Made by a program: the position numbers. A DNA stretch of 64,000 bases from an uncultured Armatimonadetes bacterium (GTDB lineage: Bacteria > Armatimonadota > UBA5829 > DTJY01): contig OY970325.1 of NCBI GenBank assembly GCA_963717145.1, positions 3,584,001-3,648,000 on the forward strand, given 5' to 3'. Below, in pieces: positions 42,001-45,000 of the stretch. Each line of letters starts with the position of its first letter. The stretch's first letter is position 1.

Positions 42001-45000
42001 GCCGGCTTAGCCATATCACGAGCGCCAACAGTATGACGGGCAGGAGTAACGCCGCGATCCCGTGTTCGCCGAGCCCCGAGGAAGGCAGGAATCTGCCCAT
42101 CGCCATGTTGACCGCCGACGACAGTTGCTTCGGCAGGACGAGTAGCCATTCCTCAACACTCCCGGGAAATCCAGGACTCCAACCGCTTGTAGTGAAATCG
42201 GAAAACTGGCGGAACCTTATGTACTCGAGCCACGTATTGATGCAGCCGGCAAGTACCGTCAACGCCAGCATTGCGCCGAACAGCCACAGGATCCATTTCT
42301 GCCGGAAGACCGTCTTGAGCGCATCGAGGTAGAGACGTGCAACGTCGTCCATAGTTGGGCGCTGGCTCCGCCCTGCCTCGTAGTACAAGGAAATCGGCAT
42401 CCGGAAGAAGCCGACCAGGAACACGATGCCAAGCGGTATGATCACCTGAAGAGCGCCGTACCAGTTGAAACCACGGCTCGGGTCCACGAAAGTACGGTGG
42501 TGTGGCCAAACCAGCCATATCCCAACCACCGCAAAAACCATCATCCAGATATTCACCCATGCGAATCTCTTGCTGTCCTCTGTCATATCAGTTCACCCTC
42601 CGGTTCAGACACTCAAGCGGGCAATTGGTTGCACGGCATCATCACTATAGCGGAAAGATCGAGTGGTGTAAACAGAAAAGAGGCGGCAGTGAAGCAAGTC
42701 CACTGCCGCCGAGAGCATGAGGAAGGCAAGGGGCAACGACGGTTGCCCGATCGCGCATAAAGCGCACTGCATGGCACTTGTACCCCTGGAGTGGAAGTGC
42801 TCAAACATCCTCCAAGGAAATAGTTCCCGACACTACTTGGGCTGATGCATTCAGGCGACGGATGCTAGCTTGGTCAAAGGGATTAGAGGGCAAGGGATAG
42901 GCGTCAGTGGCCGAGAAGTGGCTCGATCTCACGCTCAAGGCGCTTCTGCATATCGGGGTAGAAGCCCACGATGGTCTTAACCGCATTCCCCTCCGTGTCG
43001 AGGATGACCAACGTGGGGAGACCGGTGACCTCGTACTTCGCGGCGACGGATCCATCCGCGTCGAGCAGAATCTCCGCCTTGAAGCTGTTCTGTTTGGCGA
43101 ATTTCTCCACAACTGACTGGCTCTCCCGTTCGTTGATGCCGATTACCGTTACATCACGGGACGCGTATTGCTTCTCGATCGCGCCGAGTATGGGGATCAA
43201 CTTCTTGCACTCGGCGCACCAGGTCGCCCAGAAGTCGAGGATGACCACCTGTCCCCTGAAATCAGCGAGCGAGACTCCCGTCCCATCGAGGGATTCGAGT
43301 GTGAAACCATGGGTAGCGTCGGAGACCGGACCGGTCGCCTTCGGGCTCGGCAGTCCTCACGTCCCGCCGGGCGACTCGCAGTCCTGATCCGGGTATGGGG
43401 CACTCGTGATCTGAATCATGTACACGAACAGCGCCAGCATCAACATTACGACGAATATGCCGAGATACAGCCTGGTTGACTTGTTCAATTGAACCACCTC
43501 GTTCCGAGCGCGTAGCGTTCATTGCACAAGACGATATACCAGCAGGGGAGTTCCCAGAAACACGAATGACACGAATGTTCGAGAAAACAGGGAAACGTGC
43601 GGTATTCGCATCCCATTCGTGTTCGGTCACCGGAGCAGAATGACCTTTCGCCCTCTATCCCCAAGTGCTCGCCCGCCGCAACGCTGGGTGCCTTTCCCCC
43701 ATATTCGTCCATTCGTGTTATTCGTGTTTCCCCAGCACTTCGAGAGGCTGACGGTTGCCGAACGTCGGAACCGGCGTGCTGCCCGGTGCGGCCCAGCGGA
43801 CGGCGTTCTCGATCACCTTCAGGACGTTCGCATCCTTGTAGGTCGGGTAGCTCTCGTGGCCCGGCCGGAAGTAGAAGACCTTGCCCCGGCCCCGATGCCA
43901 GCAGCAGCCGCTCCGGAAGACCTCGCCGCCCTGGAACCAGCTGATCAGGACCAGCTCGTCCGGCTGCGGGATGTCGAACCGCTCGCCGTACATCTCCTCC
44001 CGGGGCAGCTCGAAGTACGCGCCGAGGCCCTCCGCGATCGGATGACCCGGATCGATGACCCACAGGCGCTCCTTCTCGTCGGCCTCGCGCCAGTTCAGGT
44101 TGCACGTCGTGCCCATCAGCCGCTGGAATATCTTCGAGAAGTGGCCGGAGTGCAGGACGATCAGGCCCATGCCCTCCAGCACCCTCTGCTGGACCTTGCC
44201 CACGATCTCGTCGGCGACCTCACCATGCGCCATGTGCCCCCACCAGGTCATGACATCGGTCTCGGCGAGGACTTTGTCGGTGAGGCCGTGCTCCGGCTCG
44301 TCGAGCGTGGCGGTCCGGACCTTCATGTCCGGCTGCTTCTTGAGGTATGAAGCGATCGCCTCGTGCATCCCCGTGGGATAGATCGTGCTCGCGGGATGGT
44401 CGTCATGCTTCTCATGCCGAAACTCGTTCCAGACGGTGACTCGGATTGTCTTGCTCATGGTTTGCCCTCTTTTCGCCGGTATTAGCCCGCATTATTCGTG
44501 TCATTCTGAGCTTGTCGAAGAATCTGGCGTTTGCAGTGCCTGGCCAGCCAGATTCTTCGACAAGCTCAGAATGACAGCCTGCGCCGACTTGAGCAGGTCA
44601 CGAATAGTGCGGGATTAGGGAATCTGTTCTGCCAGGAGCAGGACATATCCTGCTGAGCACTACCTGTCCCACATCAGCACGATATCGCCCTTGCTGTCGA
44701 GTTGCACGTGGTCTCCCAGAGAGCGTCCGCCGTCATCCTTCATGTCCGGCCCGACGCTGTAGAGCATGAACCCCTTCATCTGCCGCTTGTAGATGAAGTC
44801 CTTCTCGCTGAACGGATCCACCGGCAGCTTCCATCCGAGCTTCGACTTCAACTCCCCCATCGTCGCCGGGTATCCGCCATACCGCGCCTTGTACGCCTGG
44901 AGCCCAAGGAAGACCTGGGTCCGTGCCAGCTTCTCCTCGGTGGTGTAGCGCATCAGTCCGGTGCTGCTGCCCCCGCCCATCTTGGACATCACAGCATAAA

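Follow-up and report, generated by a model that had tools for sequence, protein, structure and literature searches.

The window analyzed here, a 64,000-nt stretch of DNA from the genome designated G000, carries on its minus strand (43497..42904) what is very probably a single gene encoding a thioredoxin-type protein with a membrane anchor, in which an in-frame UGA is read as selenocysteine (Sec). A preliminary description had joined a 46-codon ORF encoding the anchor and a thioredoxin (Trx) ORF into one 197-amino-acid frame, 43497..42904, through the TGA at 43359..43357, and had placed the candidate Sec outside an intact active site. Both points were borne out, and the WCAEC motif (CAEC at 43218..43207) is all-Cys. 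The features of the locus, with residues counted from the GTG at 43497, are as follows.

42904..43497, minus strand: whole gene, with GTG at 43497, the internal putative Sec-TGA, and a terminal TGA at 42906..42904; 197 codons
43488..43486, minus strand: TTG, the likely real start, giving 194 amino acids with Sec as residue 44
43405..43482, minus strand: N-terminal transmembrane anchor, residues 6 to 31 (AlphaFold2 helix, pLDDT of 83 to 96)
43321..43404, minus strand: disordered Pro/Gly/Ala/Ser tether with the candidate Sec, residues 32 to 59 (28 residues; AlphaFold2)
43378..43380, minus strand: Cys40, 6 residues 5′ of Sec, present in G000, G006, and G001 and not in L141
43357..43359, minus strand: in-frame TGA, candidate Sec codon, residue 47, motif P-G-G-[GT]-U-G; same aligned codon in G000, G006, G001, and L141
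43321..43339, minus strand: SECIS-like hairpin GGCGACC-GGUCC-GGUCUCC, with stem 17 nt and loop 24 nt 3′ of the UGA; −8.2 kcal/mol
42913..43320, minus strand: TlpA/ResA-like thioredoxin fold, residues 60 to 195 (Pfam, AlphaFold2, solved relatives)
43207..43218, minus strand: active-site CAEC of the intact WCAEC motif, Cys94 and Cys97, all-Cys
42682..42710, minus strand: terminator-like stem-loop with a T tail, ~195 nt 3′ of the stop codon, upstream of the next gene; 12 pairs (8 G-C)

A Shine-Dalgarno sequence (GGAGG or GAGGTG) followed by ATG or TTG precedes the anchor ORF in all four orthologs seen as DNA (G000, the genomes G006 and G001, and the metagenome contig L141), and such a site with a start codon is located only 5′ of the anchor ORF. 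The likely start in G000, TTG 43488..43486, lies 6 nt 3′ of GAGGTG and is aligned with the ATG starts of the other three. As the preliminary description had stated, the 36 codons after the TGA include no ATG, GTG, or TTG; the first is a GTG at codon +37 (43248), and initiation there would truncate the fold, cutting its first core strand and removing the N-terminal strands. A coupled restart at the GTG overlapping the stop (GTGA) was ruled out, as that frame ends after ~33 codons and differs from the Trx frame. Beyond the gene, the terminator-like stem-loop counts as a consensus match only, because one site was found against 0.8 expected in shuffled sequences. In the neighborhood, only the upstream ThuA gene is syntenic, and the downstream genes differ between loci. 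Scanning the four loci for Rfam families and tRNAs gave no matches. The conserved sequence 'LSVSHGTTSQVSW' 3′ of the G006 and G001 genes was considered as an RNA and rejected; it corresponds to the antisense strand of a sulfatase-like gene that runs convergently.

The domain following the tether is a TlpA/ResA-like thioredoxin fold. Pfam AhpC-TSA (78.3 bits) and Redoxin (67.1 bits) both score above their cut-offs, the fold region of the AlphaFold2 model has pLDDT values mostly between 94 and 98, and the best solved relative is Bacillus subtilis ResA (E = 2e-22 over residues 60 to 180). In alignment A8 (14 rows), C97 is invariant and C94 is at least 90% conserved. A Trx fold, a CxxC motif, and an N-terminal membrane anchor together place the protein among the TlpA/ResA-like oxidoreductases (AhpC-TSA/Redoxin; cd02966). 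It falls outside the narrower NCBIfam families: it reaches 93.4 bits against the model for ResA proper (NF002854; cut-off, 170) and, in agreement with earlier scoring, 38.2 bits against WAxxUGC_long (NF041054; cut-off, 300), its active site being WCAEC, and it scores 24.8 bits against a second known TlpA-type selenoprotein model (cut-off, 100). G000 has two CcdA/DsbD_TM genes; the ResA/TlpA-like paralog adjacent to CcdA is a different gene (C1:2280897).

The hydrophobic stretch of the anchor is found in all four orthologs and is followed by a conserved F-x-Y-M-x-Q-x-T-x-x-P. Homologs, too, have an anchor or a lipobox fused to the Trx fold. The intervening tether has predicted pLDDT values below 50 at residues 38 to 41, 45 to 53, and 55 to 57, and it constitutes an insertion when compared with other TlpA-like homologs, the segment being absent from the 184-amino-acid homologs P0009 to P0012 and others (alignments A6 and A8). 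Around the TGA the G000 sequence reads ...DQDCESPGGT-TGA-GLPSPK.... A role for Sec as a lipid-modified lipobox residue was ruled out, as it lies 16 residues past the end of the helix.

The TGA occupies the same codon in all four orthologs; in the four-sequence alignment, identities to G000 are 51, 52, and 57%. It had been reported earlier that G006 and G001 keep both the TGA, at 51% and 54% identity, and a CE..PGGxUG motif; the TGA is indeed kept at these identities, but in G006 the motif reads CAPVPSGGG-U-G. What is invariant in all four is the G-G before Sec and the G after it, and tether indels on either side of the TGA are whole codons throughout. Over the 35 codons 3′ of the TGA, 18 to 21 residues are identical and no start codon is conserved. 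Differences by codon position downstream of the TGA were 10/10/21, 14/7/18, and 12/8/18 per pair, the first two sets, with 21 and 18 identical residues, reproducing the earlier counts exactly; upstream of the TGA, G006 and G001 differed by 12/11/21. Third-position differences amount to ~41 to 57% per pair. Judged from these alignments, both flanks of the TGA are under coding constraint. The Cys-to-Sec spacing is 6, 8, and 8 residues in the three orthologs that have the upstream Cys, and since it is missing in L141, a fixed C...U pair is not part of the core motif and the tether offers no conserved, fixed partner for a selenenylsulfide.

Orthologs in two further genomes, G004 and G007, had been thought simply to lack the segment. 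They have instead a tether of similar length in which RRGGVGRP is aligned to PGGTUGLP, so that the nearest non-Sec ortholog carries Val at the Sec site; the two count as one sequence because their loci are 100% identical over 3447 nt. Few genomes have the TGA-bearing gene: 3 of 53 in the class and 3 of the 401 sampled across the phylum. An earlier scan had yielded no further examples, and the carriers among genomes do still number three, but L141 supplies a fourth example as DNA. Small shares occur in four soil-metagenome contig sets, and only one contig (X4 record 31, ~90% alike) spans the TGA. Among the 40 differences listed for it, none falls at 43357 to 43359, a weak hint at most in view of 23 unlisted ones, and those listed within 6 codons of the TGA comprise three synonymous changes and Ser51 to Ala. 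A profile scan of genome contigs with alignment A1 returned, among the matches listed, generic TlpA relatives of ≤48% identity over the domain and neither G001 nor G006, and is uninformative on distribution.

Eighteen database proteins matched at an E value of ≤1e-20. The 7 with ≥55% identity are all N-truncated gene calls of 111 to 123 amino acids, and the other 11 (168 to 186 amino acids) are ≤48% identical; in a tree, the TGA-bearing rows group together with the truncated ones (1 change; support, 71/81). No homolog with Cys aligned to Sec was found among these 18 matches, as the preliminary description had also held. Among 344 domain matches in 167 proteins, the aligned Cys residues were five of the lipobox type, without the motif, and the query itself, and an alignment of 9 single-domain representatives likewise gave no Cys form. 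Passages of a review (PMC13188914) state that nearly all selenoproteins have a Cys-containing homolog, and the absence of a Cys form is atypical for selenoproteins.

G000 encodes a tRNA-Sec (70.6 bits; anticodon tca by ARAGORN), SelB (383 bits), SelA (567 bits), and a SelD with its own TGA, so that all four components of the Sec machinery occur together in this genome. Across the family, selA and selB are present in 8 of 11 genomes, including all three TGA carriers (G000, G001, and G006). TGA is not reassigned in the genome, because it also terminates the 43497..42904 gene itself.

A 7-bp hairpin with a GGUYC loop follows the UGA in all four orthologs. Its stem starts 14 nt 3′ of the UGA in G006, G001, and L141 (17 nt in G000), its loop starts at 21 to 24 nt, and its energy ranges from −8.2 to −12.4 kcal/mol; the loops, GGUCC in G000 and G006 and GGUUC in G001, are those noted for these three genomes at the outset. 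The bSECIS model, as set out in passages of PMC13188914, has a loop of 3 to 9 nt with a G within its first two positions, a stem of 4 to 16 bp, a spacing of 16 to 37 nt, and an energy of ≤−7.5 kcal/mol, and the hairpin lies within each of the limits listed there in all four orthologs. It also resembles the SECIS elements of two G000 selenoprotein genes, fdhA (GUGGCC-GGUCU-GGCCGC; loop 18 nt 3′ of the UGA) and selD (GGCGCA-GGUUC-UGCGUC; loop 32 nt 3′ of the UGA).

Across the four sequences, 26 of 28 cells are paired and two of the seven pairs are changed on both sides, while slid-partner controls reached at most 60.7% pairing. One compensatory pair requires two joint amino acid changes (Ala GCC to Thr ACC and Ala GCU to Val GUC). 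For the loop Gly, GGU is used in 4/4, although GGT accounts for 14% of the Gly codons of G000, and for the 3′-arm Ala, GCU is used in 3/3 (usage, 12%). With n = 4, 62 of 500 shuffles reached the observed covariation, which we regard as real but statistically weak. RNAfold z-scores for the 60 nt 3′ of the UGA were +0.99, −2.31, +0.14, and −0.48 in the four loci; the minimum-energy fold of G000 does not contain the hairpin, and the G000 stem has a C.U mismatch. Specificity of the pattern is low: G000 has 74 such hairpins with a TGA 16 to 37 nt upstream, 6 of them flanked by open frames. The stricter pattern GGNTGAGG-N17-20-CCGGTYCGG matched in 47 of 401 phylum genomes (including G000), and a reversed-pattern control also matched in many; only the already known loci were convincing, with no sign of a wider module under this strict pattern.

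Known TlpA-type selenoproteins (NF041054 WAxxUGC; UGC-containing TlpA) likewise combine a TlpA/ResA-like Trx fold and a UGA/SECIS-encoded Sec in one polypeptide. In those families, according to passages of PMC13188914, Sec replaces a residue of the redox motif (UGC/UxxC), whereas here the motif is an all-Cys WCAEC and the candidate Sec is located in a disordered tether, 47 residues upstream. B. subtilis ResA and its relatives (PDB 2h1b and 1st9; Bradyrhizobium TlpA, 1jfu; Streptococcus pneumoniae Etrx-type proteins, 2yp6/4hqz) share the membrane-tethered extracytoplasmic Trx fold with WCxxC but have no Sec, and the tether is covered by none of the solved chains. A local likeness is found in the SelD of G000, whose N-terminal Gly-rich Sec loop, GGG-U-GCK, has the same G-G-G-U-G and is followed by a similar SECIS loop (GGUUC). 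Passages of PMC13188914 describe this part of SelD as a flexible loop that binds Se; SelD differs in fold, in function, and in having abundant Cys forms. Elsewhere in G000, a CarboxypepD_reg-repeat protein carries a second "PGG-U-G" candidate, KPGG-U-GPQGC. Passages of the MccSep paper (PMC13510729) concern another selenoprotein, and TlpA, thioredoxin, and Armatimonad are absent from the main text of the deep-Sep paper (PMC12013277).

The best explanation, to which we assign a probability of roughly 0.7, is a single anchored TlpA/ResA-like gene with Sec in the tether, joined to a more tentative reading of that Sec as a second redox center. The evidence strongly indicates that translation begins with the anchor ORF and that SelB and tRNA-Sec recode codon 47, the UGA, to Sec, guided by the in-CDS SECIS hairpin 14 to 17 nt downstream. 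The product would be membrane anchored and extracytoplasmic, with Sec in the ~28-residue disordered tether between helix and fold and an all-Cys WCxxC. In mammalian thioredoxin reductase, a C-terminal Gly-Cys-Sec-Gly arm shuttles electrons from the primary dithiol center to substrates. That enzyme, whose Gly-flanked Sec likewise rides on a flexible arm away from the primary dithiol, provides a working analogy for mechanism. It is nevertheless an unrelated, nonhomologous flavoprotein: its arm is C-terminal, its Cys and Sec are adjacent, and its SECIS is of the eukaryotic 3′-UTR kind. Given a real Sec, the selenol may serve as a second redox center on a swinging arm, a tentative assignment whose odds we put somewhat short of even. 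The selenol would attack an oxidized substrate (peroxide, sulfoxide, or disulfide), the selenenic acid or selenenylsulfide would be resolved by the protein's own CxxC, with Cys40 assisting where present, and the CxxC would be recharged via a CcdA/DsbD-type membrane reductase.

A real selenoprotein could also use the tether Sec, with or without Cys40, as a soft-metal or metalloid ligand (Cu(I), Hg, or As) or as a Se/S carrier, the Trx fold only keeping Sec reduced. TlpA proteins serve copper-center assembly, which speaks for a metal ligand, as do the C-x6-8-U arrangement in three of four orthologs and the U-x4-C of the PGG-U-GPQGC protein; passages of PMC13188914 add that metals take part in ~70% of predicted Sec-ligand contacts. 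L141 has no Cys40, however, and with only ThuA syntenic there is no conserved metal-handling neighbor, and we consider this use of the Sec unlikely.

That the TGA is a true stop, leaving either a pseudogene or a 46-amino-acid membrane peptide and a leaderless Trx protein begun at a noncanonical or late codon, we judge very improbable. Gene callers annotate precisely such products (111 to 123 amino acids), the Cys form is missing, and the hairpin statistics are weak. Against this stand a TGA and two open frames kept in frame across four lineages at 51 to 57% identity, the third-position share of differences, protein-level conservation in the 35 codons after the TGA without a conserved start, Shine-Dalgarno sites only 5′ of the anchor ORF, the N-terminal strands that a start at 43248 would remove, and the fusion of anchor or lipobox to the fold in homologs. 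Least probable of all is UGA readthrough by a non-Sec route (near-cognate Trp, Cys, or Arg) or a site that acts mainly as a Se-sensing attenuator with the residue unimportant. The disorder of the tether and the Val tolerated in the non-Sec ortholog would suit this account, but G-G-x-U-G is invariant in 4/4, the UGA is followed by a SECIS-type hairpin resembling the ones in fdhA and selD, G000 has the complete Sec machinery, and TGA is the gene's own terminator, so it is not a reassigned codon in this genome.

Bacterial selenoproteins are usually found through Sec aligned to the active-site Cys of homologs, and in thioredoxin-fold families Sec is located in the CxxC-type motif. The candidate Sec described here lacks a Cys counterpart and is found in a disordered tether next to an intact CxxC, and the gene is therefore missed by gene callers and by searches for Cys/Sec pairs. 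The gene probably represents an undescribed selenoprotein subfamily confined to one small clade. More speculatively, P-G-G-x-U-G with a compact in-frame SECIS (UGA, 14 nt, 7 bp, GGUYC loop) might be a small portable "tethered selenol" module. The lineage would have inserted it into loops or disordered stretches of at least two membrane-anchored extracytoplasmic proteins that are not related to each other, the TlpA-like reductase and the CarboxypepD_reg-repeat protein. It would have arisen de novo and not through exchange of a Cys for Sec, and its hosts would gain a swinging-arm site for redox chemistry or chalcogen binding that has no Cys counterpart. We regard this generalization as doubtful. 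The analysis corrects the annotation of these N-truncated gene calls. If the Sec is confirmed, the protein would add one more selenoprotein subfamily, would show that Sec can be gained through insertion into a linker, and would provide a small bacterial system in which to test how a selenol carried on an arm works together with a dithiol center.

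A single minus-strand frame, 43497..42904, runs through an internal TGA, the candidate selenocysteine (Sec) codon. It is laid out as follows.

43497..42904, minus strand: entire frame, opening with a hydrophobic N-terminal segment, then ...APYPDQDCESPGGT
43359..43357, minus strand: internal TGA, followed by GLPSPKATGPVSDATHGFTLESLDG... and the thioredoxin fold with FWATWCAEC
42906..42904, minus strand: second TGA, the terminal stop

Under table 11, the region divides into a 46-codon ORF and a 114-codon ORF beginning at GTG 43248, and no ATG, GTG, or TTG lies within 36 codons 3′ of the internal TGA. 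Residues 60 to 181 match the Pfam families AhpC-TSA (78.3 bits) and Redoxin (67.1 bits); NCBIfam gave only sub-threshold ResA/TlpA-type matches (ResA, 93.4 bits, cutoff 170; WAxxUGC_long, 38.2 bits, cutoff 300), and none of its models claims the protein. The nearest solved structure is B. subtilis ResA (E = 2e-22, residues 60 to 180), and no solved chain in the structure comparison covered the residues before 43. An AlphaFold2 model computed from a 19-row alignment (mean pLDDT, 87.3) showed a helix at residues 6 to 31, disorder at 32 to 59 (pLDDT <50 at 38 to 41, 45 to 53, and 55 to 57), and a confident thioredoxin fold at 60 to 195, placing the TGA codon in the tether between anchor and fold. 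An architecture of anchor, disordered Sec tether, and thioredoxin fold with an intact CxxC is strongly indicated.

In whole-genome searches of 61 relatives, 401 sampled phylum genomes, and all 53 class genomes, only the window's own genome (G000) and two related genomes, G006 and G001, gave full-length matches containing a single internal TGA. A metagenome scan with a family-specific C-terminal alignment yielded two relatives out of 54 pattern matches: contig L142, which repeats the G001 sequence, and contig L141, whose ortholog is new, is 57% identical to that of G000, and likewise has the ThuA gene upstream. The L141 tether, ...DRPAATTPGGG-TGA-GIPTSEAGPAS, keeps the TGA and lacks the upstream Cys, which precedes Sec by 6 (G000), 8 (G006), and 8 (G001) residues; all four sequences share P-G-G-[G/T]-U-G. 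The ortholog in the related genomes G004 and G007 (45% identity) has no internal stop. Since their loci are 100% identical across 3,447 nt, they were counted as one sequence; the genomes are assigned to different genera and G007 has 8% contamination, so the contig is probably shared or misbinned. The preliminary description held that these orthologs simply lack the segment; instead, their tether is about as long, with RRGGVGRP opposite PGGTUGLP, Val (GTG) at the Sec position, and neither a Cys nor a comparable hairpin.

In all four TGA-bearing loci, a Shine-Dalgarno sequence (GGAGG or GAGGTG) lies 4 to 8 nt ahead of the anchor-ORF start. This start is ATG in three loci, aligned with TTG 43488 in G000, and GTG 43497 falls within a Shine-Dalgarno-like GAGGTGG (window 43486-43497); TTG 43488 is likely the true G000 start. 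Tether indels on both sides of the TGA comprise whole codons throughout. Over the 35 codons 3′ of the TGA, the three pairs share 21, 18, and 20 identical residues and differ by codon position as 10/10/21, 14/7/18, and 12/8/18; the identity counts and the first two sets of codon-position counts had been reported earlier, and recomputation returned the same values. Upstream of the TGA, G006 and G001 are identical at 24 of 44 residues (codon-position differences, 12/11/21), while G000 compares more weakly with the others (15/43 and 15/41), showing little excess at third positions.

A collection of 5.8 billion proteins held 18 matches at E ≤ 1e-20, with no Cys form among them. The seven with at least 55% identity, P0002 (the window's own), P0005 (G006), P0006 (G001), P0008, and the new P0003, P0004, and P0007, are all 111 to 123 aa long and start inside the fold, as expected if every one carries an internal stop; each is a truncated gene call. 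The remaining 11 (168 to 186 aa, ≤48% identity) have an anchor passing directly into the fold. In a 24-row maximum-likelihood tree, a single change (support 71/81, present in 70% of bootstrap trees) accounts for the 8 TGA-bearing or truncated rows, which are nested in a clade (89/95) that also contains non-Sec relatives. These data strongly indicate that 43497..42904 is a single gene. When a four-sequence profile was searched with HMMER against 1.84 billion representatives, the top single-domain full-length matches lacked the motif; of the 14 nontruncated single-stretch matches of ≤215 aa, 9 were aligned, and the other 5 match only from profile position 52 on. The Sec state was occupied in 60 of 344 domain matches (167 proteins), by Cys in 6, of which one is the query and the other five are of the lipobox type and lack the motif.

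A hairpin follows the UGA in each of the four sequences.

G000: UGA, 17 nt, GGCGACC-GGUCC-GGUCUCC
G006: UGA, 14 nt, GGAGGCC-GGUCC-GGCUUCC
G001: UGA, 14 nt, GGAAGCC-GGUUC-GGCUUCG
L141: UGA, 14 nt, GGAAGCC-GGUCC-GGCUUCC

Their ungapped alignment has 26 of 28 cells paired, compared with ≤60.7% when the partner was slid 1 to 3 columns. Three of the 7 pairs are invariant and two changed on both sides (G-C/G-U/A-U and A-U/G-C), the A-U/G-C swap entailing two simultaneous amino acid changes (Thr ACC for Ala GCC, and Val GUC for Ala GCU). For the loop Gly, 4/4 sequences use GGU, and for the 3′-arm Ala, 3/3 use GCU; among long G000 ORFs, these codons account for 14% (GGT) and 12% (GCT) of their respective families. 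With energies of -8.2 (G000), -12.1, -11.0, and -12.4 kcal/mol and a UGA-to-loop distance of 21 to 24 nt, all four satisfy the bacterial SECIS model as outlined in a 2026 review (PMC13188914): apical loop of 3 to 9 nt with G in its two opening positions, upper stem of 4 to 16 bp, UGA-to-loop distance of 16 to 37 nt, and energy of ≤ -7.5 kcal/mol. The loop type is that of two bona fide selenoprotein genes of G000, which serve as in-genome references.

C1:3205864-3208557, minus strand: fdhA-type molybdopterin oxidoreductase (293 bits), Sec in CART-U-HAPT; hairpin GUGGCC-GGUCU-GGCCGC, loop 18 nt 3′ of UGA
C1:4140327-4141253, minus strand: SelD, Sec in GGG-U-GCK; hairpin GGCGCA-GGUUC-UGCGUC, loop 32 nt 3′ of UGA

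SelB binds the E. coli fdhF and Moorella SECIS elements at loops of the GGUC type. Statistically, the hairpin is weakly supported: shuffling the four sequences gave covariation as high as observed in 62 of 500 trials, RNAfold z-scores for the 60 nt 3′ of the UGA were +0.99, -2.31, +0.14, and -0.48, and the G000 minimum-energy fold of that stretch does not contain the hairpin. The strict pattern occurs 171 times on both strands of G000, 74 times with a TGA 16 to 37 nt upstream; 6 of these have open frames on both sides, and only two look coding. The hairpin alone is no proof; what gives it weight is that it is conserved at a single site. By its gene content, the genome can read UGA as Sec: tRNA-Sec (Rfam, 70.6 bits; ARAGORN, tRNA-SeC, anticodon tca), selB (383 bits), selA (567 bits), and selD (392.5 bits), itself with an in-frame TGA. 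Of the 11 family genomes, 8 have both selA and selB, among them all three TGA-form carriers, G004, and G007. Decoding of Sec through a SECIS inside the coding sequence is strongly indicated.

Other candidate selenoproteins were seen in G000.

C1:3494799-3495881 (L145:800-1882), plus strand: membrane-anchored CarboxypepD_reg protein (72.7 bits), in-frame TGA
C1:1578331-1581249 (L144): two tandem UshA-like multiheme (Cytochrome_C554) proteins, one in-frame TGA each (C-I-U-H, C-G-U-H)

The first shares its local motif and SECIS layout with the TlpA-like gene (EWKPGG-U-GPQGC; 14 nt on, CACGGCC-GGUUC-GGUCGUG). G006 (78% identity), G007 (52%), and a G007 paralog retain the TGA; the same hairpin was not seen by eye in the G007 copy, and no NCBIfam selenoprotein model matches. 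The UshA-like pair scored 229 and 246 bits against NCBIfam NF041198, "UshA-like (seleno)protein," slightly below the cutoff of 275.

Synteny is limited to the upstream ThuA gene (131.9 bits). Directly downstream in G000, beyond a terminator-like hairpin, lies the following gene, whose place is taken in G006 and G001 by a convergent sulfatase-like gene.

41192-42586, minus strand: 464-aa multi-pass membrane protein, no Pfam match

Nearby, at 44660-46560 (minus strand), neighboring ORFs of 499 and 193 aa have near-identical C-terminal ends (...QAYKARYGGYPA.M.ELKSKLGWKLPVDPFSEKDF.YK...GDIVLMWD); the former has no Pfam match, and the two look like tandem paralogs of an uncharacterized family.

In the family table of PMC13188914, as far as it was available, prokaryotic thioredoxin-fold/TlpA-type selenoproteins have Sec in UxxC, CxxU, or UGC motifs and no linker-Sec entry was seen, whereas here Sec lies in the linker. 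No published description of such a protein was found in the main texts of the selenoprotein/TlpA and Armatimonadetes selenoproteome literature. G000 has two CcdA/DsbD_TM genes, one adjoining a different TlpA paralog, so the Sec form is an extra paralog and not the CcdA-linked one. The main functional rival to a redox role has the tether Sec acting as a metal or chalcogen ligand. In a redox role, the CxxC would be a likelier partner than Cys40, the upstream tether Cys, because Cys40 is absent in L141. By analogy with the Gly-Cys-Sec-Gly arm of thioredoxin reductase, we infer that the tether selenol, carried by a flexible arm, may serve as a second redox centre, which would be resolved and recharged by the CxxC of the same protein.
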